From IMG/VR virus record IMGVR_UViG_2541047712_000002: DNA of 64,000 nt; one strand, given 5' to 3'. Shown here one piece after another: positions 6,263 through 63,074 of this stretch. Position numbers and translations under genes: made by a program. Every line of letters starts with the position of its first letter. Within the stretch, counting starts at the first letter, position 1. A model generated the notes under the pieces. That model did not search any database. It had not been told where the DNA came from and was given only the letters and a program-made list of their open reading frames with translations. The stretch comes from a virus (Duplodnaviria; Heunggongvirae; Uroviricota; Caudoviricetes).

Positions 6263-6355
6263 TTGTGGAAAAAAATAATCATTTCTGTAAAAATAGGTAG
6301 GTACTAACTTAATGGTGGGCATGGAACGCCCACCATATCTAGGAGCAAAGGATAA

Positions 6356-8743
6356 ATGTGGTACAGGGAAGGTACAATAAATCTCACTAAAGGAAATAAA
6401 ACTGTAGTGGGAACAGGCACAGCCTGGGGGGTGACGGCGAACGGCGTCCTTCCAGGTATGATATTGATTGGCCCCGATAATAAGTTATATGAAATAAAAT
6501 CAATCGAGAGTGACACTTCGTTAACTCTTGTTGAAGCCTACGGTGGTAGCACCCAAACAAATGTCCCGTGCAGAATAATTACGACCTATGAAGGTGATTT
6601 AACCCAATTTAGTGCTCGTTTTACTGCGCTTATGTCTCGCATGTCAGCCGATTCAAAAATGATGCGTAGTTGGTTGACTGCCGTGGATGAAATAACAATT
6701 GAGCGTGAAGATGGCACGGAATTAACCGTAAAATCCCTTACGCAGATCGTTAATGAGCACAATGAGAACCTAGAATGGTATAAAGAAAATACTCCCATAA
6801 TTAACACCGCTGCACAAAAAGCTAAAGAGGCGGCAGCGAGCGCAACAGCGGCCAAAAAATCAGAAACTAACTCAAAAGCGAGTGAGACAGCTTCAAAGAC
6901 TAGCGAAACTAATGCGAAAAATAGCGAGGTAGCTGCAAAATCGAGTCAGAGTGCTGCCGCAAACTCCGCTACCGCAGCAAAAAACAGCCAGGATGCAGCA
7001 GCCGAAAGCGAGAGTGCTGCAGCTGGTTCTGCGACTTCAGCAGCTGGATCAGCAACTGCTGCGGCTAACAGCCAGAAAGCCGCGAAGACGAGCGAAACTA
7101 ACGCAAAGTCCAGCCAGACGGCAGCGAAGACCAGCGAAACAAATGCCAAAGCCAGCGAAACTGCGGCGAAAAACAGTCAGGATGCAGCAGCCCAAAGCGA
7201 GAGTGCCGCAGCTGGTTCTGCAAGTGCGGCGGCTTCTTCTGCCTCTGCATCAGCCAACAGTCAAAAAGCTGCAAAAACCAGTGAAACCAACGCAAAGGCG
7301 AGCGAGACTGAGGCGGCTAACTCAGCGAAAGCATCGGCAGCAAGCCAGACGGCTGCAAAAGCAAGTGAAGACGCAGCCAGAGAGTATGCAAGCCAGGCTG
7401 CGGAGCCGTATAAACAAGTTTTGCAGCCGCTTCCCGATGTGTGGATACCGTTTAACGATTCACTGGATATGATTACGGGCTTTTCGCCGTCATATAAAAA
7501 GATTGTTATTGGTGATGATGAAATAACGATGCCTGGCGATAAGGTTGTAAAGTTTAAACGCGCATCAACTGCCACATATATCAATAAATCAGGCGTATTT
7601 AGTGTTGCTAAAATTGATGAGCCACGATTTGAAAAAGAAGGTTTATTGATTGAAGGACAGCGCACTAACTATTTTGTTAAATCCAATATCCCCGCTGAAT
7701 GGACGAGTACCAGCAATATCGATAAAACTAATAATGGTGTTGATGAATTTGGTTTTTCATATGCCAAAATGCGAACAAAAGATAATATGACAGGACAATC
7801 ATCTGCACTTAGTCTGCATACATGCAGTGCATCCCGGGGGATTGATGTTAGTGGCGATAATAAGTATTGCACTGTTTCATGCAGGGTTAAAGCTCCTGAT
7901 GGTCTTCGTTGTCGTTTGCGTTTTGAAAAATACGATGGGTCGGTTTATACATTTTTAGGAGATGCTTATTTAACTTTCGGAACTCTGATAATAGAAAAAA
8001 CTGGCGGAGCAGCCAATAGAATAGCAGCTACTGCAACTAAAGATCCGGTTACAGGGTGGATTTTCTATGAGGCAACTATAGAAGCTGTTGAAGGTGAAAC
8101 CTTAATTGGCGCAATGATTCAGTATGCGCCGAAAAAAGGTGGTGTAACTGAAGCGGGAGATTATATTTACCTTGCAACACCACAATTTGAAAACGGCGGA
8201 TGTGCTTCATCTTTTGTTATTACGACAACTGTACCCGCAACCCGCTCCAGTGATATGGTGACGATCCCAACTGAAAATAATATCTATAATAGACCGCTTA
8301 CGTGCCTGGTCGAGGTTAATAGAAATTGGGGCGATATTCCTCCTAATGTAGCACCGCGTATTTTTGATTTTTCTGGTGTGCCACCTATTGAGTCAATTAC
8401 ATACGCTTTTAACACAACTGAGAAATATTACGGTCAGCTTTATATGCAAACTTATAAAGCGTCGACAAGTACTTACGTTTCTAGTGTGTTTGCTGGTCGA
8501 ACTGATGTTCGAAAATTCATTGGTGGTTTTAATATTTATTCTGATGGTACTAAACGAGTAGTTTCTAACGGTGAGGCTACTAAAACCATGAAAACGGAGT
8601 GGACGGGCGTAAAAACACGGACCTTTATTCGAATTGGAGGTCAAGCCACATCGGGAACTCGTCATCTATTCGGCCATTTGAGAAATCTTCGTCTCTGGCA
8701 TAAAGAATTAACTGATGCGCAAATGGGGGAGAGTATTAAATGA
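6356..8743 (+). CDS. tail fiber protein with internal Ala/Ser/Thr-rich repeat region
   Basis: 795-aa ORF downstream of J-like gene; central low-complexity duplicated module (AAKNSQDAAAESESAAAGSA...ANSQKAAKTSETNAK...); globular C-terminal half. Confidence 0.5.
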   Translation: MWYREGTINLTKGNKTVVGTGTAWGVTANGVLPGMILIGPDNKLYEIKSIESDTSLTLVEAYGGSTQTNVPCRIITTYEGDLTQFSARFTALMSRMSADSKMMRSWLTAVDEITIEREDGTELTVKSLTQIVNEHNENLEWYKENTPIINTAAQKAKEAAASATAAKKSETNSKASETASKTSETNAKNSEVAAKSSQSAAANSATAAKNSQDAAAESESAAAGSATSAAGSATAAANSQKAAKTSETNAKSSQTAAKTSETNAKASETAAKNSQDAAAQSESAAAGSASAAASSASASANSQKAAKTSETNAKASETEAANSAKASAASQTAAKASEDAAREYASQAAEPYKQVLQPLPDVWIPFNDSLDMITGFSPSYKKIVIGDDEITMPGDKVVKFKRASTATYINKSGVFSVAKIDEPRFEKEGLLIEGQRTNYFVKSNIPAEWTSTSNIDKTNNGVDEFGFSYAKMRTKDNMTGQSSALSLHTCSASRGIDVSGDNKYCTVSCRVKAPDGLRCRLRFEKYDGSVYTFLGDAYLTFGTLIIEKTGGAANRIAATATKDPVTGWIFYEATIEAVEGETLIGAMIQYAPKKGGVTEAGDYIYLATPQFENGGCASSFVITTTVPATRSSDMVTIPTENNIYNRPLTCLVEVNRNWGDIPPNVAPRIFDFSGVPPIESITYAFNTTEKYYGQLYMQTYKASTSTYVSSVFAGRTDVRKFIGGFNIYSDGTKRVVSNGEATKTMKTEWTGVKTRTFIRIGGQATSGTRHLFGHLRNLRLWHKELTDAQMGESIK
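6814..7390 (+). repeat. duplicated ~180-nt Ala/Ser/Thr-rich module inside tail fiber gene
   Basis: two near-identical copies of ...AAKNSQDAAA(E/Q)SESAAAGSA...SANSQKAAKTSETNAK(S/A)S(Q/E)TAAK... in the translation; the out-of-frame Arg-rich ORF 6951..7472 is a by-product. Confidence 0.6.
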
Positions 8744-9021
8744 AAGATTTAACGCTCAAATTTGCAGACAGGGCCGACTTTTCGGCCTTTATGGAGAGTA
8801 TTGGCTATTATGATGACGAGTCGATGCAGGATGATATTCTTATCGACGTGATAGGTAACGTGTACAAAGAAACCGGAGAACTGACTGAAGATGGCGAACC
8901 GGTATGTGTTAAGGAGGACGGATATTTTGTAAACGTGCGCATCATTAATGATGCAAAAAAATCGTCAATATTCGATAAATACGCGATTGTTGTTGAGCAT
9001 CAACTTCGTGGCTGGATGTGA
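8740..9021 (+). CDS. hypothetical protein (possibly tail fiber-associated)
   Basis: 93-aa ORF, start overlaps stop of the upstream fiber gene (translational coupling); no recognisable motif. Confidence 0.3.
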   Translation: MKDLTLKFADRADFSAFMESIGYYDDESMQDDILIDVIGNVYKETGELTEDGEPVCVKEDGYFVNVRIINDAKKSSIFDKYAIVVEHQLRGWM

Positions 9022-9030
9022 GGGAGACAA

Positions 9031-9735
9031 ATGGCTACATCGACAGTAATTCCAGGAGACATCACCACGTTAAAGGGAGATGTCAGTAAAGCCAAGGAAG
9101 ATATTTCCTCAATTAACGGAAAAGTATCAACGCTTCAGACTGATATGACCAGTGCAAAGCAGGATATCAGCACCAGATACACAAAAACTGAAGTTGATAA
9201 TAAGCTGAAAAACAAAGTGGAAGTGAACGATCTGGAAAGTGGTCGTTATGGTGGAGATTTTTACCCGCTGACTGGTCGTGAAGCGTTTTATTTGTGGGGA
9301 TTGGGCACGACTACAGCGGCGGCAAACCTTTATCTTAATCCTGACCCCGCAATTTCGTCTGTACTGCGGTCCACATCGTCTATCCGCTATAAACATTCAG
9401 TAGAGACGATAGATTCGGAGCACGCCGATCTCATTTTCAAGATGCGCCCTGTGTGGTACAGGTCGCAATGCGAAAATGACAGGCGCGATTGGGGATTCTA
9501 TGGATTGATTGCCGAGGAAGTAGGAGAAATTGCCCCTCAGTTTGTTCACTGGCGAGCAGCTAACGAGAATGATGCTCCTGAAGCTATTTCCAGCAATGGC
9601 CTTGTTGCCGAAGGTGTAATGTACGAACGTCTGGTTGTTCCACTGATTCACCATATCCAGAAGCTGACTGAAAGAGTTGATGAACTTGAGTCAGAATTAA
9701 AGTTGTTATTAACTTCCCGAAGCGATATCGGATAA
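9031..9735 (+). CDS. putative tail fiber-associated protein
   Basis: 234-aa ORF with RBS (gagggagacaa ATG); coiled-coil-like N-terminus; C-terminal region loosely resembles intramolecular chaperone domains of phage fibers (not verified). Confidence 0.3.
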   Translation: MATSTVIPGDITTLKGDVSKAKEDISSINGKVSTLQTDMTSAKQDISTRYTKTEVDNKLKNKVEVNDLESGRYGGDFYPLTGREAFYLWGLGTTTAAANLYLNPDPAISSVLRSTSSIRYKHSVETIDSEHADLIFKMRPVWYRSQCENDRRDWGFYGLIAEEVGEIAPQFVHWRAANENDAPEAISSNGLVAEGVMYERLVVPLIHHIQKLTERVDELESELKLLLTSRSDIG

Positions 9736-9745
9736 AGGAGGAATA

Positions 9746-10030
9746 ATGGATATAACACCTTTCCTTCATGCACTTTGTGCTGTGGCTGCGCAGGTACTGG
9801 TTGGTCTTTTTACCGGAAACTGGGCTTACGGGGCGATAGCCGGTTGTACGTTCTTCATTGCTCGTGAACATACCCAGGCAGAATATCGCTGGATTGAAAT
9901 GTTCGGGCATGGCAAGCGAATGAATATGCCGTGGTGGGGCGGTTTTGATCCGCGCGCGTGGGATGTAGCAAGTCTGATGGATTTTGCGATTCCACTTTTA
10001 GCGTGCACATTATTATATATTTTTATTTAA
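9746..10030 (+). CDS. small membrane protein
   Basis: 94-aa ORF with RBS (aaggagg) and hydrophobic segments at both ends. Confidence 0.35.
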   Translation: MDITPFLHALCAVAAQVLVGLFTGNWAYGAIAGCTFFIAREHTQAEYRWIEMFGHGKRMNMPWWGGFDPRAWDVASLMDFAIPLLACTLLYIFI

Positions 10031-10199
10031 TATAAGATTAACTGAGATATAGCTTACGCAAAGAAGGTAATAAATATAAAGAGAGATGTTCTGAGGTAAT
10101 TTATTGTTGGTGTTTAAGGTTATTTACAGATAGGTAAGTGCATACCTATATAAAAAAGATAAAATGTGATATAAATCCGCCATCCCGATTTGACTTTTC

Positions 10200-10535
10200 A
10201 TGGAGGAAAATATGTCGAACGAGATGGCGGGCGTAACAACAGAGCAAGTTGAGCGCATTGCCGCGATCGTTGCTCGGGAGGTTGTCGGCAAATTAGGTAA
10301 AGAGCTACGTGAAGAAATTGGCCAGGAGGTCAACGATCAGCTGAAAACCTACTTTGGTGATATGACCCCGGCGCAACATAGTATTCAACACTCCAACCTG
10401 GACAAACTCCTTAACCGGTTAGATTCCATCTCCAGTGGGTTCTTTGGCGGCATTGTTTCTAAAATAACGTCGTTCATTATTACCGCACTGCTTTTGGGGT
10501 TAGCCGCGTATGGCGTGAAAAATGGACTGCAATAA
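10200..10535 (+). CDS. putative holin-like membrane protein
   Basis: 111-aa ORF with RBS (ggaggaaaat ATG); single C-terminal transmembrane segment (ITSFIITALLLGLAAYGV); directly upstream of lysis-like genes. Confidence 0.3.
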   Translation: MEENMSNEMAGVTTEQVERIAAIVAREVVGKLGKELREEIGQEVNDQLKTYFGDMTPAQHSIQHSNLDKLLNRLDSISSGFFGGIVSKITSFIITALLLGLAAYGVKNGLQ

Positions 10536-11241
10536 CAGGAGATCAAGGATGAAGACTCCGAGAGGCATTCGTAACAATAACCCCGGTAATCTTGATAAAG
10601 GATCGCCGTGGCAAGGTCTGGTTGCTAATCCAGACGAACCCCGCTTTTGCACGTTTAAAGACCCTGTTTGGGGGATTCGTGCGCTGGCGGTGACTCTAAT
10701 TACCTACCACGACAAACGTCGCGCAAAAGACGGCTCAAGTATCGATACCATTCGTGAAGTTATTGAACGCTGGGCACCGCCGAACGAAAATAACACTGAC
10801 GCCTATATTAATGAGGTGTCCAAAGCAGTTGGTGTAACCGCAGACATGATTATCGATCTGCATGATTACGACATCCTTCGACCTTTAGTTGAGGCAATCA
10901 TTCGCCACGAGAATGGCCGAGGCCCGCTAAAAACGCTGAACACCTGGTATGCGGCAGAAGTTATTGAGGAAGGTCTGCGTCGAGCTGGCGTCGTTAAGCC
11001 GGTGAAAACGGTGAAGGCTGTTCCTGTAACGAAAGAAACCGCAGGCGCAACTGTTACAGCAGGTATTGGTCTGGCGCAGCTTGCCGATGTTATGCCGCAG
11101 ATTTCCGCTGCTATGGATAAAGCACAAGGTCATATCTCTAGCGGGGATACAGTACGCATCATCTTCGGTATTGCCACTATTGTTGTGGCAGGATTCATTG
11201 CCTGGTCGCAGGTAAGAAAACACCAGAAAGGGATGGTCTAA
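10522..11241 (+). CDS. putative cell-wall hydrolase / lysis protein with C-terminal membrane anchor
   Basis: 239-aa ORF with RNNNPGNL motif and C-terminal hydrophobic segment (IIFGIATIVVAGFIAWSQV); enzymatic class not determinable by eye. Confidence 0.3.
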   Translation: MDCNNRRSRMKTPRGIRNNNPGNLDKGSPWQGLVANPDEPRFCTFKDPVWGIRALAVTLITYHDKRRAKDGSSIDTIREVIERWAPPNENNTDAYINEVSKAVGVTADMIIDLHDYDILRPLVEAIIRHENGRGPLKTLNTWYAAEVIEEGLRRAGVVKPVKTVKAVPVTKETAGATVTAGIGLAQLADVMPQISAAMDKAQGHISSGDTVRIIFGIATIVVAGFIAWSQVRKHQKGMV

Positions 11242-11242
11242 T

Positions 11243-11494
11243 ATGCTAGGCAGCCTGATGACAAAGCTAAAAGTTGCTTTGATTATGCTGGCTGCCGTTC
11301 TTTTCGTTCTTGTCGGCGCTTACACGATGGGCGGAAATGCGGCGCGACGAGCAATGGAAGAGAAGGCAAAACAGGAAGACAGAAAACGACTTCAAAACAC
11401 AGTGAAAGTGGTGAATGAGACGAGCAGTAAAATACGTCAGAAAGATGCTTCTGCCGTTCATCGTGAGTTGTATGATAAGTGGGTGCGTCATTAA
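11243..11494 (+). CDS. i-spanin (Rz-like)
   Basis: 83-aa ORF: N-terminal TM helix (LIMLAAVLFVLVGAY) followed by charged coiled-coil region; an overlapping lipoprotein ORF lies in another frame. Confidence 0.45.
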   Translation: MLGSLMTKLKVALIMLAAVLFVLVGAYTMGGNAARRAMEEKAKQEDRKRLQNTVKVVNETSSKIRQKDASAVHRELYDKWVRH

Positions 11495-11630
11495 ACCACA
11501 AACAGCCAGCGTGTTGTTCTGCGATGGGGCTGAGCCTATCTATATCAGCAATAATGATGTAATGACTGAAGAAACCGAACGCCAAATCCTTTTTCACAAT
11601 ACGATGGGAGAGAGGGTTTGTGGTTGGTGA
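11415..11630 (+). CDS. o-spanin (Rz1-like lipoprotein), overlapping the Rz-like gene
   Basis: 71-aa ORF with signal peptide and lipobox (LLPFIVSCMISGC), starts inside the Rz-like gene in a different frame and extends beyond it. Confidence 0.4.
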   Translation: MRRAVKYVRKMLLPFIVSCMISGCVIKPQTASVLFCDGAEPIYISNNDVMTEETERQILFHNTMGERVCGW

Positions 11631-11662
11631 TGTCGAAGTTCCCCTCAAATGAGGGGAACACA

Positions 11663-12184: not shown

Positions 12185-12191
12185 GAGTAAA

Positions 12192-12461: not shown

Positions 12462-12779
12462 GTATTCCTCCTGATGGCCGTGATGTAGGAAGGCCATCAA
12501 TCTCCTCTGTTCAAACTGAGTTTTCGACTCAAAAATTACTTTAAAAGGCTATAGCCCATTACGTGTGCATTATCAAATTGTGTACGGCATATCACCGTAC
12601 TTGTAATATAGAGGTCATTGTTACTTTTTTCAACAGACAAATACAAGCTATGATTGCCAATTGTTAACCACAACCTACCATTTAACCTTTACACCGCAGC
12701 CGTAGGCATTTAGGCTATATCACATATAAGAAAACAAGTTGTTTCAGACGATAATTATATACGCAAAGGGAACTCTCCA

Positions 12780-13807: not shown

Positions 13808-13849
13808 TAATGTGGGCTGTCTAGCCCACATTATTTTAATTAAAGTGGA

Positions 13850-14611
13850 GTGATAATTATGCATTCGTTAGTATTTGCATTTAAAAACATACTCAAGAAT
13901 GTTATAAACATACTAGGGATGTTAAATATTTTTTTGTCTGTGAGGGTGAGGAGAAAAGATATAAAAGATAAATTAAAGGAACTTAACAAAGAAAAAGAAC
14001 AATTAAAAAGCGAAGAAATTATTATTGATTTATACAAGAAAAAACTCGCATCTAGCAAGGGGAAAGCTAATGATAAAATCAAAGGAAAAATAATTCACTA
14101 TATTATTGCTAGAGAGTTGGGGAATGATCCTGATAATGAAGATTTGCGACATAATCTTTTTACAAAGATAAAAGAATCAGAAGAACAGGTTGAAGTTCTG
14201 GTTCATCAAAGAGAAGTAAGTGAGCAGGCGAACAAAAAAGAAACGGTTGTCAATTTGTTTTTATTGTATGAAAAAAATAAATTGTTTAAAGCTAAGGGGT
14301 TGGCTGTGTTTCTTATAGTTATAAACTTAATTATAGTTGCGACTCTCGATCTTCCAGCTTGGTCATTGATTATAAGTTTTTTTATTCTCTCTTTGATTAT
14401 GTTGAAAGATCAGATACTTACTATTCGTGTCTCTAAAGGATATTTTGGCACAAGTGCGTATGAAGCGGTTCAATTGCTTAAATTCATCAGAGAAAATTCA
14501 GACAAATTTGACTCAGATGATAATGACGGTAGCCCACGACGGATATTGAATCCGAAGGGAACAACAAAAAAATCAGACAACCTATTCGATAAAGGGTGGC
14601 AAAATGTTTGA
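13850..14611 (+). CDS. hypothetical membrane protein (AT-rich accessory gene)
   Basis: 253-aa Lys-rich ORF with two hydrophobic segments in a markedly AT-rich block. Confidence 0.3.
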   Translation: MIIMHSLVFAFKNILKNVINILGMLNIFLSVRVRRKDIKDKLKELNKEKEQLKSEEIIIDLYKKKLASSKGKANDKIKGKIIHYIIARELGNDPDNEDLRHNLFTKIKESEEQVEVLVHQREVSEQANKKETVVNLFLLYEKNKLFKAKGLAVFLIVINLIIVATLDLPAWSLIISFFILSLIMLKDQILTIRVSKGYFGTSAYEAVQLLKFIRENSDKFDSDDNDGSPRRILNPKGTTKKSDNLFDKGWQNV

Positions 14612-15026
14612 CCTTGACGCCATCACTAAGTTCTTAAATCAGTGTTTTGATCTACTTTTGCTCAAGCAGCCTTTAAGAACTGTTTTCGGAATACTGATTG
14701 GTTTCATTATTTTTGTTTTTGTTTACACGTTTAGGTTTGCGATAGCTCAAGATTTTTATGAAATAGATGGTGTGCATTACGCTGCATGTTTCGTCATCGG
14801 TGTTTTAGTTGTTCACACAAGAACATTTTTTGACGTTATCAAGGGCACCGCAGTTGATGAAGAAATAGATAGTATGATCAGAGTTATTACGAAGCAGCCA
14901 CACCTATCTAACCATCAAAAAAACATAATGATTGCTGAAATACTTCAAAAAGAAATTGCAGCCATAAGTCAAAAGAGATTGGATAAAGTTGCACAAGAAA
15001 TAACGGAGAAAAAGACAACTGATTAA
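14604..15026 (+). CDS. hypothetical membrane protein (AT-rich accessory gene)
   Basis: 140-aa ORF overlapping the previous gene stop; two transmembrane segments. Confidence 0.3.
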   Translation: MFDLDAITKFLNQCFDLLLLKQPLRTVFGILIGFIIFVFVYTFRFAIAQDFYEIDGVHYAACFVIGVLVVHTRTFFDVIKGTAVDEEIDSMIRVITKQPHLSNHQKNIMIAEILQKEIAAISQKRLDKVAQEITEKKTTD

Positions 15027-15197
15027 TTTAATTACCTGTTTCTGTATATAAATAATAAGTAACTTATTAAATATATATACGGAAGCAGGTCTTTTAAAAG
15101 ACACCCACCAGAACAACTCCCTTCCGTTTCCACTTCCAAAAACTGCCACCAGTCGCTATCATCCGCTCATTGTGATAAGTAAGTAACTACCTACCAG

Positions 15198-18594: not shown

Positions 18595-18669
18595 CAATCA
18601 CCTTCAAAATAAGTAGATGATTACTTATCTTTCTGTGAGAATACTTTCATCTGTTAGCTAGGAGTTGGT

Positions 18670-19452: not shown

Positions 19453-19507
19453 GCTCTCAGTGTGTCGTTTTTTACGCAAATAATGATAGGTAAGCACAAG
19501 ATTATTT

Positions 19508-37221: not shown

Positions 37222-40200
37222 CTTCTCACTTGGGGAGTCGGCTCTAAAAGCAGAAAACGCGGTGAAGATTGCCAGAGAAGCTGGCTACACCGCTGTAATT
37301 TCAGCAGATAGCATGAATATTGCGAGTGTTATTCCACTACAACGTGCCGCTGGTGACGACATGGCGGTTATTTGTGGTGTGAAACTAAATATCGTTGATG
37401 ATCCCACATACGAGCACCGGGCTAAACTTGCTAAAGAATCTATGAGATGTATGGAATCATTAGAGCGGGGACGTAACTACTCGTTTACCGCTCTAATTAA
37501 AAATGAGCAAGGATATCGCGACATCTGCGAACTAATGACGGTGGCCAACACACGAGAACAGTTCTACTTTGTACCGCGTCTCTCGCTCGAACAGTTGGTT
37601 TCTACATATGCCAAAGGCAACATCATCCTGCTCACTTCCGACATCGGTAGCGTGTTCCAACGCAACGATTTTGCAAAAATCATAAGCTCACTGATTACAG
37701 CGGGCGGGAAAGACAACTTCTATAGCGTGGTTTATCCGCACCCTACCCCATTCTACGACCAGATTAACGTCCGAGCGATGAAAGTAGCCAGCGCACTGAA
37801 AATAGAGCCAGTAGCGTTCTATCCCGCTTATTACGAATCGATCGACGATGCAGACATTAAAGACATTGCGCACATGGTTACGAACAACATAAAAATCGAC
37901 CAGCCGCATCGTCTGCGTATCCCCCACCAGCGAGATAACGCCATCAATGGTCGTCGCCATCTCCTTGAGGCGCTTAAAGCCTTCTCCGTTCGCATGGATG
38001 TGCCGGTAACAGCTGCAATGGCCTCAACAACGCAGGACTCCATTATCGATGCCTGCACATGGCGCTGGCATGAATTGCCACCAGCACTGCCCAAGATGGC
38101 AGACGACGAACCTGCAACGCTGATGAAACTGGCTGTTGCAGGGCTGCGTAAACGTCTTACCACAAAAGAGTTTGGATACACACCACCTGCTTCTGAGAAC
38201 AGGGTTTATGTTGAGCGGCTAAAGTACGAAATGAACACGCTGACTCGCCTGGGATTTTGTGGTTACTTCCTGATGGTACGCGATCTGATGAATCACAGCC
38301 GTGAAACTGGCATTCCTGTCGGGCCTGGTCGTGGTTCCTCTGCCGGTTCTCTGGTGGCGTGGTGCATAGGCATAACCAACGTCGACCCAATCCGTCACGG
38401 TCTTCTGTTTGAGCGTTTCATCAACCCTGAGCGTCTCGACTTGCCGGATGCGGACTTGGACTTCAGCCAGGCACGTCGCCATGAGGTGATCGAGTATCTG
38501 AATGAACGCTACGGCGAAGATTACGTTGCAGGCATTCCGAACTTCACCTACCTGGGCGCAGCCTCTGCACTACGTGACACCGCTCGTATTTATGGTGTGG
38601 AGTCCGCAGATATGGCGGTATCAAAAGAACTGAAGAACGTCGAGGATGATAGCCTTCCATTGGAAGAGCTGCGCGAACAACTGGCAAGTCTCGACAAATA
38701 CGCAACAAAATATCCTGATGCATTCAATGCAGCCTGCAAGTTACAAAGCCTTATGCGTGGCTTTGGTAGACATGCGGCAGGGATGATTGTAGCAGGTGTT
38801 CCTCTGACAGAACGTACACCGGTTGAGCGCCGTGGTGACGCGCGTTGTATCGCATTTGACAAGCGTTACTGCGAGGCTATGGGCCTAATTAAGCTGGACG
38901 TGCTTGGCCTGGCAACTCTCGATTTGCTCGATAGTGCAAAACGCTACATAAAAGAGAACACAGGTGAAGATATCAATCTTGATGCCATTTCTCTTGAAGA
39001 TCGCAAGGTGCTGGATGGTTTTGCTGCAGGGTATACACAGGGCGTATTCCAGCTGGAGTCCGGCCCCATGCGCAAGCTGCTTAAAGATCTAGGCGGTGGC
39101 ATTGAGCCAATGAGCTTTAAAACCGTTGTCGCCACGACCGCACTCTTCCGACCTGGCCCGATCCAATCCGGCATGTTGGACGACTATGTTTCTGTCGCCA
39201 AAGGCTTTATGACGCCGGAATCATTACACCCCGTTCTTGATGAACTTACCGCGGAAACAAATGGCGTGATTCTCTATCAGGAACAGACGATGAACGCGAC
39301 TCGATTGCTTGCCGGCTTCACAATGGCTGAAGCTGACGGTGTGCGTTCCGCAATCGGTAAGAAGAACATGGAAAAAATGAAGAGCATGGGCGAGAAGTTC
39401 ATCGTTCAGGCTCAAGCTGGCTGGATAGACGTTGAGCTGGAAGATGGCACTACACAGCGCATTCACCGTGCGGAACATTTTAAATGCGAAGACGGAACTC
39501 TGAAAACTGTCGAAGAGGCACTTGAGCACGGCGCAAAACTACCTATAAACGCAGTACGCGTTACAGCGTCACATCCAGGGCTATCAGAGATGAAAGCGAA
39601 GGAGATCTGGACCGCATTCGAAAAAAATGGTGCCTACCAGTTCAATAAATCACACTCCGTTGCTTATTCTTTAATCAGTTATCAGTCTATGTGGCTAAAG
39701 ACGCACTACCCTGCTGAGTTCTTCGCAGCTGCGCTCACCATTCTGGGCGAGGATAAGCATCAGGGGCTGGTGAAGGATGCGCTGACCTATGGCATTCGCG
39801 TATTGCCACCAGACGTTAATGTGTCATCTAACCGAATTGAGATCCGCACACTCGAAGACGGCAGTCAGGCACTGTATGCGCCATTCTCTGCTGTGAAAGG
39901 CTGTTCTGAAAATGGTTGTCAGGCAATTATGCGTGCGCGTGAGAAAGTTGGTGGCAAATTCGAGTCAGTGGCACAATTCGATGAAGCGGTCGAGAAGCGT
40001 GCATGTAACAGTCGTGTACGCGAGTCGCTTCATAAAGTAGGGGCTTTTGCGTCAATTGAGCCAGGCAGTCTGCCAGCAACTGATCCTGAACGACTGCGCG
40101 ACCAGGCTGAGCTGATGGGCAATCTCATCATTGACGCTGTTAAAGCATCACGTCCGTTCGAAATGAATCCTAAGCGTTCTGCCGAAATCAACGTACTCAT

Positions 40201-40714
40201 GACACGTATGGCGGCTGAAATGGGCTTGGGTGAGGAGTTGATACGCCCGACTATTGGTATTAAACCCAAAATCATGATCATTCTGGACAATGCGAACGGC
40301 AATGACGCTCGTACCGGCTACTTCATGGAGAACGGATACGACGACTTTAAGGCAAAACTACTGACAGTTGGAGATCTGCGCATGGGCGATCTTTATGTCA
40401 CGGGTGTTTGTAAGAAGGTTAAGGACAAAGAGAAAGACTATACCAAAGACGAGATAGGCCAGTTCACAGACTTTATGCGGGAAGAAATTAATCTTGTACG
40501 ACCAACCTACATTTTGACGTGTGGTAGTCGTTCAACCGCACTATTTAACAATAAGAGTAAACCATCAGATCTGATTGGTCGTAAGGAGTACTTCCCAGAG
40601 CTTGATGCAACCGTCTTCTACGGATTTAACCCGAATATCCTGTACTTCCGACCGGAAGAAGGAGAGCGACTGGAGGCCATTCTGGCTGATATCGCGGAGA
40701 CAATAAATAAGTAA
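37196..40714 (+). CDS. dnaE: DNA polymerase III alpha subunit-like replicative polymerase (DnaE-type, PHP domain)
   Basis: 1172-aa ORF; PHP N-terminus, catalytic region LPDADLDFSQARRHEVIEY and GPGRGSSAGSLVAWCIGIT resembling DnaE palm motifs. Confidence 0.7.
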   Translation: MKALMVRTDFSLGESALKAENAVKIAREAGYTAVISADSMNIASVIPLQRAAGDDMAVICGVKLNIVDDPTYEHRAKLAKESMRCMESLERGRNYSFTALIKNEQGYRDICELMTVANTREQFYFVPRLSLEQLVSTYAKGNIILLTSDIGSVFQRNDFAKIISSLITAGGKDNFYSVVYPHPTPFYDQINVRAMKVASALKIEPVAFYPAYYESIDDADIKDIAHMVTNNIKIDQPHRLRIPHQRDNAINGRRHLLEALKAFSVRMDVPVTAAMASTTQDSIIDACTWRWHELPPALPKMADDEPATLMKLAVAGLRKRLTTKEFGYTPPASENRVYVERLKYEMNTLTRLGFCGYFLMVRDLMNHSRETGIPVGPGRGSSAGSLVAWCIGITNVDPIRHGLLFERFINPERLDLPDADLDFSQARRHEVIEYLNERYGEDYVAGIPNFTYLGAASALRDTARIYGVESADMAVSKELKNVEDDSLPLEELREQLASLDKYATKYPDAFNAACKLQSLMRGFGRHAAGMIVAGVPLTERTPVERRGDARCIAFDKRYCEAMGLIKLDVLGLATLDLLDSAKRYIKENTGEDINLDAISLEDRKVLDGFAAGYTQGVFQLESGPMRKLLKDLGGGIEPMSFKTVVATTALFRPGPIQSGMLDDYVSVAKGFMTPESLHPVLDELTAETNGVILYQEQTMNATRLLAGFTMAEADGVRSAIGKKNMEKMKSMGEKFIVQAQAGWIDVELEDGTTQRIHRAEHFKCEDGTLKTVEEALEHGAKLPINAVRVTASHPGLSEMKAKEIWTAFEKNGAYQFNKSHSVAYSLISYQSMWLKTHYPAEFFAAALTILGEDKHQGLVKDALTYGIRVLPPDVNVSSNRIEIRTLEDGSQALYAPFSAVKGCSENGCQAIMRAREKVGGKFESVAQFDEAVEKRACNSRVRESLHKVGAFASIEPGSLPATDPERLRDQAELMGNLIIDAVKASRPFEMNPKRSAEINVLMTRMAAEMGLGEELIRPTIGIKPKIMIILDNANGNDARTGYFMENGYDDFKAKLLTVGDLRMGDLYVTGVCKKVKDKEKDYTKDEIGQFTDFMREEINLVRPTYILTCGSRSTALFNNKSKPSDLIGRKEYFPELDATVFYGFNPNILYFRPEEGERLEAILADIAETINK

Positions 40715-43097: not shown

Positions 43098-43214
43098 TTT
43101 TTGATAGATAATAAGTAAGTACTGATCTATCATTTAACAGCTCGAAAGAGCCACGAATGAACGAAAGCCCAACGCGCATAGCGCCATCGGCCAAATCACA
43201 ACAAGGAGAAACAC

Positions 43215-57746: not shown

Positions 57747-57755
57747 GGAGACTAT

Positions 57756-58325
57756 ATGAGTAAAAAAATCAGCGTAGTTGGTGTTGATCCCTCAATGAGC
57801 AACTTTGGGCTTGCTGTGGGCACTTTAGACCTTGAGACGGACGAACTTGAGATTCACGGCCTTACTCTTGTTGAGACTAAAGCGGGGAGTAACAAAAAGA
57901 CCGTTCGTGTGAACAGTGACGATCTGCGCCGCGCCAGTGAAATATGGCGTGTTGCGAAGCCAATCATTGATAAGGCAAATATGGTTTTTTGTGAGCTACC
58001 GGTTGGGAGCCAAAACTCTCGTTCGCAGACGTCTTACGGTATTTGTATCGGTGTACTTGCGTGTGTGGATAAGCCATTGATCCAGGTTACTCCAAACGAA
58101 ATCAAGCATTTTGTCGGCAATAAACTTACTACATCGAAAGAAGAGATTATCCAGTGGGCTACGAAAAAACACCCTAAAGCACCGTGGCTGCGTCGTAAGC
58201 AATCTGGACAGGATGTTCTCGTGAACAAAAACGAACATTTGGCTGATGCGGTGGCTGCCATCCATACCGGTATGCAAACAGATCAGTTCCGCCAGGTGCG
58301 CGATGTTCTTAAGTCTCTCATTTGA
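57756..58325 (+). CDS. RuvC-like Holliday junction resolvase (putative)
   Basis: 189-aa ORF; N-terminal ISVVGVDPSMSNFGLAV resembles the first catalytic Asp motif of RuvC-fold nucleases. Confidence 0.4.
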   Translation: MSKKISVVGVDPSMSNFGLAVGTLDLETDELEIHGLTLVETKAGSNKKTVRVNSDDLRRASEIWRVAKPIIDKANMVFCELPVGSQNSRSQTSYGICIGVLACVDKPLIQVTPNEIKHFVGNKLTTSKEEIIQWATKKHPKAPWLRRKQSGQDVLVNKNEHLADAVAAIHTGMQTDQFRQVRDVLKSLI

Positions 58326-58398
58326 TTTCATTGATAGGTAAGTGCTTATCTATTAACATGGGCCACTATATTTAGTGGCCCTCTTTATTTGGTGATAC

Positions 58399-60714
58399 AT
58401 GATAAGCATCGTAAAACGTAACGGCCAAACAGAGCCGTTATCCGAAGAAAAATACAACCGCGTCGTAATGTATGGCGTAGAAGGCATTCGTGGTGTAAGC
58501 GCATCCGCTGTAGCAATGGGAGCTGCGGCCAGCATTTTTGATGGGATTACCACCAGCCAGTTGCATGAGGCTTTGGTTAAATCTGCCGCTGATTTGATCT
58601 CACCAGAAGCACCAAATTACTCACAGGTGGCTGCCCGCCTGAACATTTTTAAAATCCGCAAAGATGCCTTCGGTCGTTACGACTATCCGAACTTCTACCA
58701 ACACATTGTCAAGAACGTTAACAAGGGCGTTTATGACAAGGATTTGCTGACACATTATTCGTTTGAAGAGATCGAAGAACTCGGCAATTACATTAAGCCG
58801 AAACGTGACGATCTTTTTGGCTATGCAGCTACGGTGCAGTTGCAAAGCAAATACCTCGTTCAAAACCGTGTTACTGGTGAGATTCATGAGGGGCCGCAAC
58901 ATATCTATATGCTGGTAGGCATGTGTCTGTTCCAGAATTGGGAAGACGACTGCGCTGGCAAAACACGTATGGAGATGGTCAAAGGTTTCTATGACGTTAC
59001 AAGTACGTTCAAACTGTCTCTGCCCACACCAATCATGGCCGGCGTCCGTACTCCAACCCGTCAGTTCTCCAGTTGTGTGCTGATTGAGTCTGGCGATAGT
59101 CTGAAAGGGATTAGTGCAGCTTCAGCCGCAATTATCGACTACGTTTCACGTCGTGCTGGAATTGGTATTGGTTTTGGCCGTATCCGTGCGCTGGGCAGCG
59201 AGATCCGCAATGGTGAAGCCACCCATACTGGAGTTATTCCATTCCTGAAGCATTTCCAGACGGCTGTTAAATCTTGTTCGCAAGGTGGTGTTCGTGGTGG
59301 CGCAGCAACAGCGTTTTACCCGATCTGGCATCTTGAAGTTGAAAGTCTGCTGGTGGTGAAAAATAACCGTGGTATTGATGAAAACCGCGTTCGCCATCTT
59401 GATTACGGCGTCATGAGTAACCGTCTAATGTACCGTCGACTCGTCAGAAGCGAGAACATCACTCTGTTCAGCCCGCATGATGTGCCTGATATGTACGAAG
59501 CCTTCTTCACAGACCAGGATCTGTTTGAAAAGCTGTACCATAAATACGAAGCCGATGATTCAATTCGCAAGAAGTCAGTACCTGCCATTGAGCTGTTCTC
59601 ATCTCTGATGCAGGAACGAGCGTCCACGGGCCGAATTTATATTGCGAACGTCGATCATATTAACGAGCATGGCGCTTTCATTCCTGCTCTTGCACCTGTT
59701 CGCCAGTCAAACCTGTGCATGGAGATCACTCTACCCACCCGTCCACTGGCATTTACCGACGACCCGAACGGTGAGATCGCGCTATGCACTTTATCCGCTT
59801 TTAACCTCGGAGCCATCCGTTCACTGGAGTCTCTTAAAGAGGTGGCGTTCTATGCCGTTGCTGCACTGGATTCGTTACTGGATTATCAAGACTATCCGAT
59901 GGAGGCAGCCGAAGTGCCTGCCAAAGCTCGTCGTAGCCTGGGAATTGGTGTAACCAACTTTGCTTATTACCTGGCAAAGAATGGCGTTCGTTATTCTGAT
60001 ACCGCTGGCAATAAACTGGTGCATGAAACGTTCGAAGCTATCCAGTATTACCTTCTTGACGCCAGCTGCCGACTTGCTGAAGCAAAAGGTGAGTGTGACT
60101 GGTTTGAGCAGACCAAATACGCAATTGGTCAGTTGCCGATCGACCATTACCGTTCTTCATTAGACGAAAGCGGCGAAACCAACTTTGAGTTAAAGATGCC
60201 GTGGGAAGAACTGCGTGAACGTATTGCAAAATACGGCCTTCGCAACTCCACTCTGACGGCACAAATGCCATGCGAGACTTCCAGCCAGATCACTAATTCC
60301 ACCAACGGCATCGAACCGCCTCGTGGCCCGGTGTCGGTGAAATCTTCTAAGGACGGCATCGTTAAGATGGTCGTGCCTGAGTTTGAAAAACTGAAGGAAC
60401 AGTATGAATACCTGTGGGATATGCCGGACAACCGCGGCTATCTGACAAAGGTGGCGATCATCCAGAAGTTCTTTGACCAGGCTATTTCAGCTAATACCAA
60501 CTATGACCCTTCTCGCTTTGAAGGCGATAAAGTCCCAATGATGACGCTACTGTCAGATTTGCTTCTCGCCTACAAGATGGGAGTTAAAACGCTTTACTAC
60601 CACAACACCAGAGATGGTGCAGGAAAGCGTGATGACGACGAAGCGCAGAATCCACTTACGCAAGCTGTAGCCGTCGAGCCAGAAGATGAGTGCGACGGAG
60701 CCTGCAAAATCTGA
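58399..60714 (+). CDS. nrdA: ribonucleoside-diphosphate reductase alpha subunit (class Ia)
   Basis: 771-aa ORF; N-terminal ATP-cone, active-site SNLCMEI, C-terminal Cys pair (CDGACKI). Confidence 0.8.
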   Translation: MISIVKRNGQTEPLSEEKYNRVVMYGVEGIRGVSASAVAMGAAASIFDGITTSQLHEALVKSAADLISPEAPNYSQVAARLNIFKIRKDAFGRYDYPNFYQHIVKNVNKGVYDKDLLTHYSFEEIEELGNYIKPKRDDLFGYAATVQLQSKYLVQNRVTGEIHEGPQHIYMLVGMCLFQNWEDDCAGKTRMEMVKGFYDVTSTFKLSLPTPIMAGVRTPTRQFSSCVLIESGDSLKGISAASAAIIDYVSRRAGIGIGFGRIRALGSEIRNGEATHTGVIPFLKHFQTAVKSCSQGGVRGGAATAFYPIWHLEVESLLVVKNNRGIDENRVRHLDYGVMSNRLMYRRLVRSENITLFSPHDVPDMYEAFFTDQDLFEKLYHKYEADDSIRKKSVPAIELFSSLMQERASTGRIYIANVDHINEHGAFIPALAPVRQSNLCMEITLPTRPLAFTDDPNGEIALCTLSAFNLGAIRSLESLKEVAFYAVAALDSLLDYQDYPMEAAEVPAKARRSLGIGVTNFAYYLAKNGVRYSDTAGNKLVHETFEAIQYYLLDASCRLAEAKGECDWFEQTKYAIGQLPIDHYRSSLDESGETNFELKMPWEELRERIAKYGLRNSTLTAQMPCETSSQITNSTNGIEPPRGPVSVKSSKDGIVKMVVPEFEKLKEQYEYLWDMPDNRGYLTKVAIIQKFFDQAISANTNYDPSRFEGDKVPMMTLLSDLLLAYKMGVKTLYYHNTRDGAGKRDDDEAQNPLTQAVAVEPEDECDGACKI

Positions 60715-60814
60715 CATATGGTGGGGTATATCCCCACCTTATCTTTGATTTGTAAGCCTTGTTTAAACACATAAGATAACAACTTGTTTAAACACATCAA
60801 AAAAGGAAAAACAC

Positions 60815-61957
60815 ATGTCATATTCAACGTTCCGTTTGGGTGCTAATGATGCAACCAAAGAGCCTATGTTCCTCGGACAATCTGTCAACGTGGCTCGTTA
60901 CGATCAACAAAAATACCGTGATTTTGAAAAGTTGATTGAACGTCAATTGTCTTTCTTCTGGCGGCCGGAAGAAGTTGATATTTCGAGCGATCGCATCGAC
61001 TTCAATACGAAGCTGCGGGACCACGAACGCCACATTTTCCTGAGTAATCTCCGTTATCAAACGTTGCTCGATTCAGTTCAGGGACGTAGCCCAAACGCAA
61101 CTCTGCTGCCGCTTATCTCTATTCCTGAACTGGAAACGTGGGTTGAAACGTGGTCTTTCTCTGAGACTATCCATAGCCGCAGCTACACCCACATTATTCG
61201 TGGCATGGTGGACGATCCGAGTATTGTTTTTGACGGTATTGTTACGGATGAAGAAATCATCAACCGAGCCATCAGTATCTCTGCTGAATATGACAGGCTT
61301 TATGGGATGACCTGCGATCGCCAGTCGTTAGGCGAGAAGGAATTTGAGCGTCTGTACGTAAATGAATATGGCTGGGAGCCATATCCTTTGCACCGTCAGC
61401 TTTTCCGCACGTTAGTGTCCATTAATGCGCTTGAGGCGATCCGTTTCTATGTAAGTTTTGCATGTACGTTTGCCTTTGGCGAACGGAAGTTGCTTGAGGG
61501 TAACACCAAAATTATGCGCTTTATTGCCCGTGATGAAGCTCTGCATTGCGAAGGAACTGAACGCATGATCCGCTTCATGCGTACCGGTCGCGAAGGTTTA
61601 TTGTGGAAAGAGATTGCTGCTGATGAAGAAAACGTCATTTACGACACCATGAAATCAGTCGCCGAACAAGAAATGAACTGGGCAGACTATCTCTTCAAAG
61701 ACGGTTCGATGATTGGTTTAAACGCGGATACTCTGAAGACCTATGTAAAATACCGAACCAATCTGGCTATGAATCGTCTTGGCCTGAAGGCTTTATTTCC
61801 AGAAGTTACCACTGATCCGCTGGTCTGGATGAACAAGTGGTTGTTAACCGACACACTGCAAATTGCACCACAAGAGGCAGAGCAAAGCACATATCTGGTA
61901 GGTCAGATCGATTCTACCGTGGACAAGGCTTCTCTAAGCCAGTTTGCAGACCTGTAA
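60815..61957 (+). CDS. nrdB: ribonucleoside-diphosphate reductase beta subunit (class Ia)
   Basis: 380-aa ORF with di-iron ligand motifs ([23 protein letters not shown]). Confidence 0.8.
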
Positions 61958-62034
61958 ACCGATACAAAGCATTATGTGGCCTGGCAACGCTGGGCCACAA
62001 TGGATCACAAGAATTAAGAAGGAACAAAACTAGC

Positions 62035-62904
62035 ATGAACTTTACCAAACTGACTGACCACCTGAAACTTGCCACCGATCGACTCATTGGATTTAAGCCA
62101 GAACCATATGAGTTGCATGAAGGCCATGGTGTAGCCACTGAAAGTATTTACAAGATGGTCGATCAGTTTCATGAACTCTTCCAGCATCCGAGACGCGTTA
62201 TGCCGACACCAGAGCTGCTTCGTCTCCGTGCAAGCCTGATTCATGAAGAAGCTGTAGTGGAAGGTATTCCAGCCGCAATGAATGGGGATATTGAGCAACT
62301 GCTGGATGCAATGGCCGACTTTTTATACGTTGGTGTTGGTACGATGGTCTCCATCAAAGGTGGTATTTCTACCGGCATGACCTATTACACGCAGGAGCAG
62401 AGCATTGATCGCTTTATGCAGACAATTTTTGTGCCCGGTAACACTGTTTTCGATGATATGGCAATGCCATTTCAGGAAGCTCGTGAGGCGTCATGTATGC
62501 TCGAAGAGCTGGCAGATAAACTTGAGAAGAAGACTGTTAAGGATTCTGAGCTGATTCAGGAACTGCGCCGTGTAATGAACAAAATCTATGTGGCGTGCAT
62601 GATGACTTATCGACTGGCTGATTTCCTCGGTATCAATGTCGTCGAGCTGGTTGGCGAAATTCATCGGTCTAACATGACAAAATTATGGCCTGCTGATGTT
62701 GAGGAACGTCGCCAGGCTGTGGCCAACTGCAAATACGACTCTTCAGATCTGGGATTCCGCCATGCTGATGGCACCGATAAGATGATCGGTTTTCGAATTT
62801 CCGATGGAAAGATTCTGAAGTCTCCAACCTATAGTGATGTCGATTTATCCTCCTTTGTTGAGCAAGCTAAAGCCTCAGCAATGTACGGAATGATCAAAAA
62901 ATAA
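62035..62904 (+). CDS. hypothetical protein (nucleotide-metabolism context)
   Basis: probable start MNFTKLTDH with RBS (aaggaac); the track ORF 61837..62904 overlaps nrdB and is an upstream extension. Confidence 0.4.
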   Translation: MNFTKLTDHLKLATDRLIGFKPEPYELHEGHGVATESIYKMVDQFHELFQHPRRVMPTPELLRLRASLIHEEAVVEGIPAAMNGDIEQLLDAMADFLYVGVGTMVSIKGGISTGMTYYTQEQSIDRFMQTIFVPGNTVFDDMAMPFQEAREASCMLEELADKLEKKTVKDSELIQELRRVMNKIYVACMMTYRLADFLGINVVELVGEIHRSNMTKLWPADVEERRQAVANCKYDSSDLGFRHADGTDKMIGFRISDGKILKSPTYSDVDLSSFVEQAKASAMYGMIKK

Positions 62905-62962
62905 TTGTAGGTAGTTATCTATCTGTGTATATTTAACATGCGTAATAAAACTCTGGAATGAC

Positions 62963-62987
62963 TATTCGTTTTGGTGGCCTATGGCCA
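62963..62987 (+). terminator. rho-independent terminator
   Basis: TGGTGGCC-TAT-GGCCACCA followed by TTTTTTT. Confidence 0.6.
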
Positions 62988-63074
62988 CCATTTTTTTATC
63001 TGTCTGGTCTTGTTCTCTCAATGAATGTAAACTCACACGATGAATAAGTAATTACTTATCTTTGTGAGGTTTTT

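Follow-up and report, generated by a model that had tools for sequence, protein, structure and literature searches.

A conserved 20-bp palindrome repeated across an SSU5-like phage-plasmid is a candidate multi-copy operator of an XRE-type repressor

P1 is a plasmid prophage of enterobacteria in which the C1 repressor controls scattered operons, including those for replication and recombination, through more than 12 operators; the P1 operator is an asymmetric 17-bp site, C1 is not an XRE-type protein, and the late genes of P1 are controlled indirectly via Lpa. The c repressor of the Streptomyces phage phiC31 recognizes a palindromic 17-bp site that occurs in about 18 copies, mostly intergenic and near early promoters and terminators, and these sites accompany a dedicated promoter class that is not of the sigma-70 type. 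In the IncP plasmid RK2, KorB, a member of the ParB family, and KorA use a dozen dispersed palindromic operators at varied distances from promoters to coordinate replication, maintenance and transfer. The SOS box of LexA is a 20-bp palindrome (CTGT-N8-ACAG) with a variable centre, its outer arms being conserved, and is found at variable positions over sigma-70 promoters including that of LexA itself. In mycobacteriophage L5 and Cluster A phages, 20-30 copies of a short site are spread across the lytic genes, few of them in promoters and most in short intergenic spaces, and a small repressor silences the whole genome, motif and repressor co-varying between lineages; the L5 sites are 13 bp long, asymmetric, oriented with transcription and bound by a monomer without cooperativity (PMC6550527). 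Here we describe a repeated palindrome in a 64,000-nt stretch of DNA (the window) from IMG/VR virus record IMGVR_UViG_2541047712_000002, which megablast identifies as part of an SSU5-like phage-plasmid. The sequence comparisons suggest that the motif is a multi-copy operator of a dimeric phage helix-turn-helix (HTH) repressor, most likely the XRE protein listed below, a reading that we place just on the probable side.

32627 to 33013, minus strand: gene of an XRE-family HTH repressor of 128 aa, the candidate binder.

The likeness to the described systems is one of design. P1 shares with this element the enteric phage-plasmid character and the many dispersed operators, but the motif is unrelated to that of P1 and also stands directly at structural and lysis junctions. 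phiC31 likewise has a repeated palindrome, whereas its host, sequence and repressor family are unrelated and its dedicated promoter class is not seen here. RK2 resembles the element in its dispersed plasmid palindromes; here, in contrast, the ParB-like genes are silent in the plasmid state and the favoured candidate binder is of XRE type. LexA is alike in architecture, but its sequence differs, and no S24 self-cleavage domain was found in the XRE protein. L5 likewise combines dispersed copies with a single repressor, here a putative one, but the present site is a palindrome of 20-28 bp in another host and with another protein family. The motif is a member of none of these systems: the sites of L5 and P1 are asymmetric, sequence and protein are unrelated, and the palindromic form of both site and flanks separates it from L5-type stoperators. 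By analogy, the motif may still work in a stoperator-like manner at promoter-less junctions without belonging to the L5 family. Four sub-strings of 12-15 nt from the motif and its core were not found in the full text of the papers searched, and keyword searches on SSU5 and pHCM2 brought up no title or abstract that describes such a regulon. To our knowledge, the motif does not match the consensus of Fur, LexA, CRP, DnaA, IHF and other such proteins, a comparison that serves as a lead and not as a test.

By megablast, Escherichia phage Cyrano (pLF82) is 98.5% identical to the window over a 12-kb probe, and Salmonella phage SSU5 about 81%. Window positions 1-64000 align to Cyrano 15589-73555, with the segments 4678-10128, 13810-15031 and 22974-31398 replaced relative to Cyrano. 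The gene map, assembled from the Cyrano annotation and the open reading frames (ORFs), runs from tail and lysis genes through the par region to genes of replication, recombination and nucleotide metabolism, nearly all on the plus strand, and about 13% of the window (8.3 kb) is intergenic. The terminase of the SSU5-like group is common to more than 1000 plasmid records; those of the Acinetobacter and Aeromonas plasmid relatives used below show 59% and 53% identity.

The weight-matrix consensus of the motif is the 20-bp palindrome ATAAGTAAGTACTTACTTAT, with TA every 4 bp, and its symmetry reaches weakly into the flanks, to 28 bp (AATGATA...TATCATT). When half-site spacings from 0 to 12 were all scanned with at most one mismatch, only spacings of 2, 6 or 10 were found; therefore the motif is a nested palindrome with TA at every fourth base, and not the loose repeat of 16-25 bp that an earlier note, made from the sequence alone, had described. 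The pattern ATARGTA-N6-TACYTAT (ATARGTANNNNNNTACYTAT), with up to two mismatches allowed, has 20 matches in the window vs 0.57 expected from dinucleotide shuffles (maximum 4). Since intergenic DNA is AT-rich, it was shuffled on its own, and here 16 matches stand against 0.26 expected (maximum 2), with four exact matches vs none in the shuffles. An iterated weight matrix built on the motif, from which all scores in bits given below are taken, yielded 23 peaks in the window, 18 of them intergenic, and the same scan found no strong sites upstream of ParA, the toxin-antitoxin genes, RepA or HicAB. The copies are thus many, far above chance and spread over the element, as in a regulon with dispersed operators.

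All 14 sites listed in the earlier note contain the motif, at or a few bases from the positions it gave. Its statements that the density exceeds chance and that the location is mostly intergenic (16 of the 20 pattern matches fall in the 13% intergenic part) are borne out by these counts, and shuffled sequence, in which an equal frequency would by its own terms have refuted it, did not show the motif as often. The 3' flank TACTTATCTTT(N)TGTG that it reported at 18609, 22130 and 63042 is indeed shared. Of its sites, 62908 is weak (14.9 bits) and 15054 is atypical, lying in the loop of a long terminator-like hairpin. The distance to the start codon, given there as mainly 30-80 bp, is actually 1-112 nt, and about 750 nt at 22131, which precedes tRNA genes. 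Nor is the set confined to replication and nucleotide metabolism, as had been supposed: within the window it takes in tail-fibre and lysis sites, and the complete genomes add junctions of terminase, portal, capsid and tail genes. The conserved palindrome at these junctions agrees with the single regulator that had been suggested, whereas the dedicated promoter class offered beside it finds no fixed distance to a -10 element or start codon. The sites 19486-19505 and 25065-25084, a weak site at 49523 and the core GGTAAGTGCTTACC at 33045-33058 are additions to the earlier list.

The motif is conserved across the family. In an unbiased 8-mer enrichment, its words TTACTTAT/ATAAGTAA come out on top for Cyrano as well as for SSU5, and these complete genomes hold 27-30 matrix hits and 22-23 pattern matches vs 0.3-0.6 expected. 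The hits stand at orthologous junctions across the rightward lytic block, namely between terminase and portal, between capsid and the next gene, in the tail region, between J and fibre, at the holin, and at replication and nucleotide genes; in roughly the last 15-20 kb of the complete genomes there are no strong hits, except one 5' of the ParB-like genes in Cyrano. The same sites are present in a Klebsiella plasmid and in Y. pestis pMT. In aligned orthologous spacers, 125 of 140 motif columns are invariant vs 364 of 570 other intergenic columns (Fisher p = 5e-10), and by this measure the motif is under purifying selection. The Acinetobacter plasmid carries the variant ATTAGTAAGCGCTTACTAAT (22 matches vs 0.07 expected) and the Aeromonas plasmid the variant ATCAGTAAAYRTTTACTGAT (16 vs 0.07), and the junction of capsid gene, motif and terminator is retained in Acinetobacter. 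AGTAA/TTACT is constant in the enteric, Acinetobacter and Aeromonas lineages, while the mirrored positions 3 and 18 vary in concert (A/T in enterics, T/A in Acinetobacter, C/G in Aeromonas), as expected of a co-evolving homodimer. The sites lie at promoters and intergenic spaces of lytic genes and off the genes expressed in lysogeny, again as in a dispersed-operator regulon. Those of the window are as follows.

6293 to 6312: ATAGGTAGGTACTAACTTAA, 23.6 bits, at the junction of the tail J and tail-fibre genes, directly followed by a GC hairpin (6314-6335); orthologues at Cyrano 22448 and SSU5 21937.
10130 to 10149: ATAGGTAAGTGCATACCTAT, 26.9 bits, exact pattern match upstream of the holin/lysis cassette, with the conserved extended -10 TGATATAAA 20 bp downstream; the 20-bp gap to TATAAA is constant in the window, Cyrano and SSU5 though the spacer sequence varies.
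15048 to 15074: two overlapping weak motif frames, 17.8 and 20.3 bits, within the loop formed by the hairpin at 15037-15105, past the par region; conservation extends to Cyrano, SSU5 and Klebsiella.
15175 to 15194: ATAAGTAAGTAACTACCTAC, 20.2 bits, 9 nt 5' of the start of the CYRAN_31-helicase-primase genes.
18609 to 18628: ATAAGTAGATGATTACTTAT, 25.6 bits, exact pattern match; the extended -10-like TGTGAGAAT begins 6 bp past the site, its hexamer after 8 bp, and motif and -10 are conserved in Cyrano and SSU5.
19486 to 19505: ATAGGTAAGCACAAGATTAT, 21.3 bits, 5' of CYRAN_35 and the ligase gene; Cyrano, SSU5 and Klebsiella have orthologous sites.
22131 to 22150: ATAAGTATTTACTTACTTAT, 30.4 bits, the strongest site, with TATAAG(AT) after 8 bp and then a conserved 30-nt segment; conserved in Cyrano, SSU5, Klebsiella and pMT1.
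25065 to 25084: ATAGGTAATGACTCACTTAT, 21.6 bits, 5' of the glutaredoxin operon, overlapping a sigma-70-like ATGACT-17-TATAGT; orthologue in Klebsiella.
35702 to 35721: ATAAGTAACTACTTACCATA, 16.1 bits, at the junction of the CobT-like and CobS-like genes, TATATT 8 bp downstream; motif and TATATTTATATAAG conserved in SSU5 and pMT1.
43111 to 43130: ATAAGTAAGTACTGATCTAT, 25.1 bits, 5' of the gp32-like SSB gene, within the spacer of TAGATA-17-TATCAT; conserved in SSU5 and Klebsiella.
47897 to 47916: ATATATAGGTACTTACTTAT, 25.0 bits, occupying the spacer and -10 of TTGAAA-17-TATTAT (10 of 12 sigma-70 consensus positions), terminator 47861-47881 just upstream; the entire block is conserved in SSU5 and pMT1.
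49523 to 49542: ATAAGTAAACACTAACCACA, weak, 12.9 bits, directly 5' of the CYRAN_59 ribosome-binding site; the orthologous place scores 20.4 bits in SSU5, 16.2 in pMT1 and 14.9 in Klebsiella.
49850 to 49869: ATAAGTTAGTATCTACCTAT, 24.5 bits, its centre TAGTAT being the -10 of TTTACA-17-TAGTAT and the CYRAN_60 ATG lying 1 nt past the motif; -35 and motif are conserved, the spacer is variable.
53650 to 53669: ATAGGTATATACTTACTTAT, 28.7 bits, exact pattern match 5' of SbcD; TGTATATT begins 6 bp past the site and its hexamer TATATT 8 bp past it; Cyrano and SSU5 have orthologous sites.
58334 to 58353: ATAGGTAAGTGCTTATCTAT, 27.4 bits, at the junction of RuvC and NrdA, within TTGATA-17-TAACAT, with an intrinsic terminator just downstream (58360-58381); conserved in SSU5.
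62907 to 62926: GTAGGTAGTTATCTATCTGT, weak, 14.9 bits, just 3' of MazG and 5' of terminator 62972-62990; weak SSU5 orthologue at 72357.
63040 to 63059: ATGAATAAGTAATTACTTAT, 22.8 bits, 16-bp core 63044-63059, 15 nt 5' of ThyX; conserved in SSU5 with the flank CTT(G)TGTGAGGTT.

Two of these sites adjoin other conserved features. The long, terminator-like hairpin 15037-15105 has the form CCTGTTTCTGTATATA...TATATACGGAAGCAGG followed by TCTTTT, with a motif-like AT-rich palindrome in its loop. It occurs in two copies per genome in Cyrano (one at about 78085-78150) and in SSU5, and once in a 37-kb Klebsiella stretch, and may serve as a strong terminator by which par operon and replication genes are insulated from each other. 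Just 3' of site 22131, with the tRNA genes following about 700 bp further on, the 30-nt segment GACTTTGTTTTCGTTGAGACGCGACTGTTTGA (22165-22196) is shared as a conserved element by E. coli, SSU5, Klebsiella and pMT and may be a small RNA or leader.

Expression of the regions around these sites can be read from the LF82/Cyrano RNA-seq values for every Cyrano gene (S1 Table of PMC9928086). In lysogens, CYRAN_45, which is 100% identical to the window repressor, reaches 95.8 normalised counts vs a median of 9.8; the repressor is therefore expressed in the lysogenic or plasmid state (PMC9928086). Lytic genes that follow motif sites are at background level in lysogens grown in LB (median 9.8), with CYRAN_34 and CYRAN_81 as partial exceptions in the LF82 lysogen, and counts fall 9-fold, from 54.6 for CYRAN_30 to 6.2 for CYRAN_31, over the spacer with the hairpin and site 15175 (PMC9928086). 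In bacteria inside macrophages at 6 h, expression (given as log2 values) rises 12-fold from CYRAN_55 (4.06) to CYRAN_56 (7.65) at site 47897 and 12-fold from CYRAN_59 (4.95) to CYRAN_60 (8.6) at site 49850; it also rises from CYRAN_33 (4.9) to CYRAN_34 (7.3) at site 18609 and from CYRAN_11 (5.9) to CYRAN_12 (8.4) at a further motif site (PMC9928086). Since the step-ups lie exactly at motif sites, at least those four fall on real promoters with almost no activity in the lysogen, and the increase probably reflects partial derepression. Cyrano is inducible by ciprofloxacin (PMC9928086).

The XRE protein had been named as a candidate regulator in the earlier note, and the presence of a motif core at its own predicted start site, conserved in three lineages, strengthens the case.

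33045 to 33058: 14-bp core GGTAAGTGCTTACC (GGTAAGYACTTACC), directly downstream of the repressor promoter, candidate autoregulatory operator.

This is the only exact RGTAAGNNCTTACY match in the window. The predicted repressor promoter (TTTACA-16-TAATAT, 33087-33060, minus strand) has the core abutting its -10, at the predicted start site, so that the repressor's own promoter carries a copy of the motif, in the form of the inner core only, as would be expected of autoregulation. The block CTTTACAA-N16-TGTAATAT-C(G/A)GTAAG(C/T)ACTTACC is conserved in the window, Y. pestis pMT1 and the Klebsiella plasmid, although the repressors are only 65% (Yersinia) and 56% (Klebsiella) identical. Given the low matrix score of this core (see below), the link between the XRE protein and the motif rests on the exact core and its conservation. 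Homologues of the protein are annotated as XRE family in public records; the Pfam match to HTH_19 (E=7.8e-4, 19.7 bits) is below the 30.2-bit cut-off, and among Protein Data Bank profiles it matches XRE-type HTH structures (2kpj, E=0.003; C.AhdI, 0.14). The segment with the HTH and recognition helix is the most conserved part of the repressor among enterics, and E. coli and Yersinia share an identical KNANNLSLIKSGK. In the Acinetobacter and Aeromonas homologues the helices differ, as do the motifs of their elements, and motif-like sites lie upstream of their own genes.

The module of XRE gene, divergent small gene CYRAN_46 and integrase gene is absent from SSU5, which is described as virulent (PMC5427195). 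Because SSU5 grows lytically all the same, no binder from this module can be an essential activator, and loss of the XRE gene fits a virulent derivative that still carries the operators.

If the motif is a repressor operator, the following mechanism can be proposed. Repressor dimers would occupy about 18 copies of the 20-bp palindrome in the window and some 30 across the entire element, so that the lytic genes would be kept silent by one small repressor while the element persists as a plasmid. Where operators overlap sigma-70-type promoters, whether at the -35 region, at the spacer and -10, or at the -10 and start site, RNA polymerase would be excluded; at tight junctions that lack a promoter, the bound repressor could act as a stoperator-like roadblock to elongation. 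The weaker core copy in the promoter of the repressor itself, at its start, would provide negative autoregulation, and loss of the repressor upon induction would free all lytic units together.

Several observations weigh against this proposal. The core at the repressor promoter scores 8.2 bits with the full matrix, a value reached or exceeded at 35 window positions. SSU5 keeps about 25 well-conserved sites without an XRE gene, which the retention of some other binder would explain more easily. A site of 20-28 bp with nested half-sites exceeds a simple XRE dimer operator. The motif also stands directly before a terminator hairpin at 58334, at Cyrano 5443 and 15529 and at Acinetobacter 72829 and 76789, an arrangement that goes beyond what the model requires and is not fully explained by it; a start site inside the terminator hairpin is plausible at 58334 (TTGATA-17-TAACAT) and not at 6293 or Cyrano 5443. 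Finally, the totals of sigma-70-like matches are not above shuffle expectation; therefore single promoter calls are weak, and promoter matches were relied on only where conservation or RNA-seq backs them.

The strongest alternative is that another conserved phage protein, retained in SSU5, binds the palindrome as an activator or as an element of a phage-specific lytic promoter class, in which case the copy at the XRE promoter start would shut off the repressor during lytic growth. We consider this unlikely, but in its favour are the retention of sites in SSU5 without the XRE gene and the promoters that the four RNA-seq step-ups reveal. It also draws on the subset of sites (18609, 22131, 35702, 53650 and Cyrano 84620) in which a -10-like element, often with TG, lies at a constant 8 bp past the motif without a -35, on the 20-bp spacing of the lysis promoter, constant in three genomes, and on the many Acinetobacter and Aeromonas sites that end in TATAAT. 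However, the 8-bp arrangement holds for only about a third of the sites, and the others are in different registers: -10-like elements follow the motif by 8 or by 20 bp, stand at its 3' end or coincide with its centre, and these multiple registers rule out a single fixed promoter geometry. Sigma-70-like promoters overlap the motif in at least four registers, several of them conserved across lineages, and SSU5, pMT or Klebsiella keep the promoter elements at 43111, 47897, 49850, 58334 and others amid variable neighbouring bases. Counted from the predicted start sites, the motif centre falls at about -42, -30, -19 or -7, and predicted centres near -19 or -7 are incompatible with activation. Conserved sites 0-13 nt from the start codon (15175, 49850, Cyrano 2020 between terminase and portal, and Cyrano 77436) are too close to it to admit a start site downstream of the motif. 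At the best promoters, 10 of 12 sigma-70 consensus positions are already matched, so that repression and not activation should be needed. In addition, motif and flanks (AATGATA...TATCATT) are symmetric, unlike promoters, and the fixed distance from motif to -10 or start and the asymmetric consensus of dedicated phage promoter classes such as T4 middle or P1 late are not seen. The variable register, including positions over the -10 and start site, therefore fits a repressor operator better than an activator or a dedicated promoter.

A protein annotated as sigma-70 family in the Acinetobacter relative might seem to favour the promoter-class alternative. Its gene (30780-31445) lies at the junction of the CobS-like gene and DnaE, its match to Sigma70_r2 is sub-threshold and it has no enteric counterpart. 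A phage sigma factor was rejected on the grounds of that sub-threshold Pfam hit and of tblastn searches, which found no sigma homologue in the window, Cyrano or SSU5.

It is quite improbable that the sites are instead parS-like or KorB-like targets of one of the two conserved proteins with ParB N-domains (CYRAN_119/120, encoded outside the window) and serve partition, DNA organisation or long-range silencing. KorB of RK2 does use dispersed palindromes, the E. coli, SSU5, Acinetobacter and Aeromonas elements all carry the conserved ParB-like genes, and a motif stands just upstream of the first of them (Cyrano 105107, Acinetobacter 87797). However, these genes, although conserved, are silent in the lysogen: CYRAN_119 and CYRAN_120 are at background there (5.0 and 9.5 vs the median of 9.8), compared with 96 for the XRE gene (PMC9928086). 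No motif lies upstream of the ParA partition operon (12498-12779). Thus neither the expression during plasmid maintenance nor the linkage of sites to the partition operon that a ParB-parS or KorB system would show was found, and the position of the ParB-like genes at the head of the virion-assembly operon suggests a lytic-phase role for them.

Action of the palindrome in RNA, as an intergenic mRNA hairpin for processing, stability or translational control, would suit sites that are transcribed within long co-directional operons and that often adjoin ribosome-binding sites or terminators, and a perfect palindrome is able to fold. Because a G-T pair between the arms still pairs in the sense-strand RNA and an A-C pair does not, selection on RNA should leave a strand bias among non-complementary arm pairs. 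The counts of G-T vs A-C are 17:15, 15:20, 12:11 and 30:37 in the four lineages, and position 4/17 of the window sites has four Watson-Crick, four G-T and four A-C combinations. Between the arms, the choice of A or G is uncorrelated with that of T or C, and pairing is not kept by compensatory or wobble changes as in a structured RNA; the 6 bases at the centre often lack self-complementarity, conservation extends beyond mere pairing ability to the primary sequence, and an Rfam search matched the motif to no family. The absence of a G-T excess, the uncorrelated arms, the non-self-complementary centre and the lack of an Rfam match together indicate selection on duplex DNA, which fits a symmetric dimeric protein; the symmetry of the mismatches and the Rfam result rule out an RNA hairpin to the extent that we give it very little credence.

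Equally hard to credit is an origin as selfish or recombinogenic intergenic repeats, REP-like or PeSL-like, that mark module boundaries: one mosaic junction between window and Cyrano falls at 10128, 2 bp before the motif at 10130, and another at 15031, at the hairpin element (15037) with its motif-like loop, but the remaining mosaic junctions are not at motifs, the sites hold orthologous positions in E. coli, Salmonella, Klebsiella and Yersinia (with the capsid junction retained in Acinetobacter) under purifying selection, and there are neither flanking duplications nor variable copy placement. The conserved repeats may additionally serve as recombination junctions for module exchange at 10128 and 15031.

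Other features of the element were noted beside the motif. Over-represented words CACTATAG and CACTATGG arise from RepA iteron arrays (CTCTATAGTGGWT, many in 21-bp phase) at 50599-51080 and 52177-52700, on both sides of the repA gene (51084-52139, minus strand). The Chi octamer GCTGGTGG occurs 25 times on both strands of Cyrano vs about 7 expected under a third-order Markov model; in the window it is found at 2833, 3242, 13044, 20811, 20996 and 59349 on the plus strand and five times on the minus strand. The RecA-like gene 45517-47856 encodes 779 aa, including an intein with a LAGLIDADG homing endonuclease (aa 73-486, Pfam), while its homologues in SSU5, pMT and Klebsiella have 358 aa. DNA polymerase III alpha (37196-40714) is one uninterrupted ORF of 1172 aa; in the Klebsiella, Acinetobacter and Aeromonas relatives a NUMOD4/HNH endonuclease gene divides the corresponding region, leaving one gene of about 785 aa and another that carries the annotation uracil-DNA glycosylase family. 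On the minus strand, 40993-41411 matches the Rfam cspA thermoregulator (187.6 bits) over a cold-shock protein gene and its leader, and is a host-like cold-shock module on a phage-plasmid. The window also carries cargo without a Cyrano counterpart, a chaperone-usher fimbrial operon (26591-31265) with a PapB-like regulator, a fimbrial subunit, a PapD chaperone and an 809-aa usher; its slot, between the tRNA genes and the integrase, is that of the caf1 F1-capsule chaperone-usher operon on Y. pestis pMT. Outside the window, Cyrano 100780-101301, annotated as 'transcriptional regulator', is a full-length match to FljA (Pfam E=1e-80), the repressor of phase-1 flagellin and an unexpected cargo of a phage-plasmid.

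Returning to the palindrome as repressor operator, a wider claim can be made, tentatively and with the balance of our judgement against it: the motif would be a family-wide, ancient silencing code of about 30 sites at nearly every lytic junction, including those inside the virion-assembly operon, in which one XRE repressor serves both promoters and palindromic roadblocks and the immunity of a lineage is set largely by the symmetric base pair 3/18 (A in enterics, T in Acinetobacter, C in Aeromonas). Such a code would be shared by pMT1-type elements of Y. pestis, pHCM2-type elements of S. Typhi and those Klebsiella and E. coli elements that carry resistance. Phage-plasmids of the SSU5-like kind occur widely in clinical Enterobacterales and Acinetobacter, and include Y. 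pestis pMT and carriers of resistance genes. If the motif is their master operator, it would offer a direct handle on induction and on superinfection immunity groups, predict which elements are hetero-immune, and supply a simple sequence signature by which lytic transcription units could be annotated throughout the family. If true, the design of many operators for one repressor known from P1 and L5 would extend to a third, unrelated phage-plasmid lineage, with a palindromic site.

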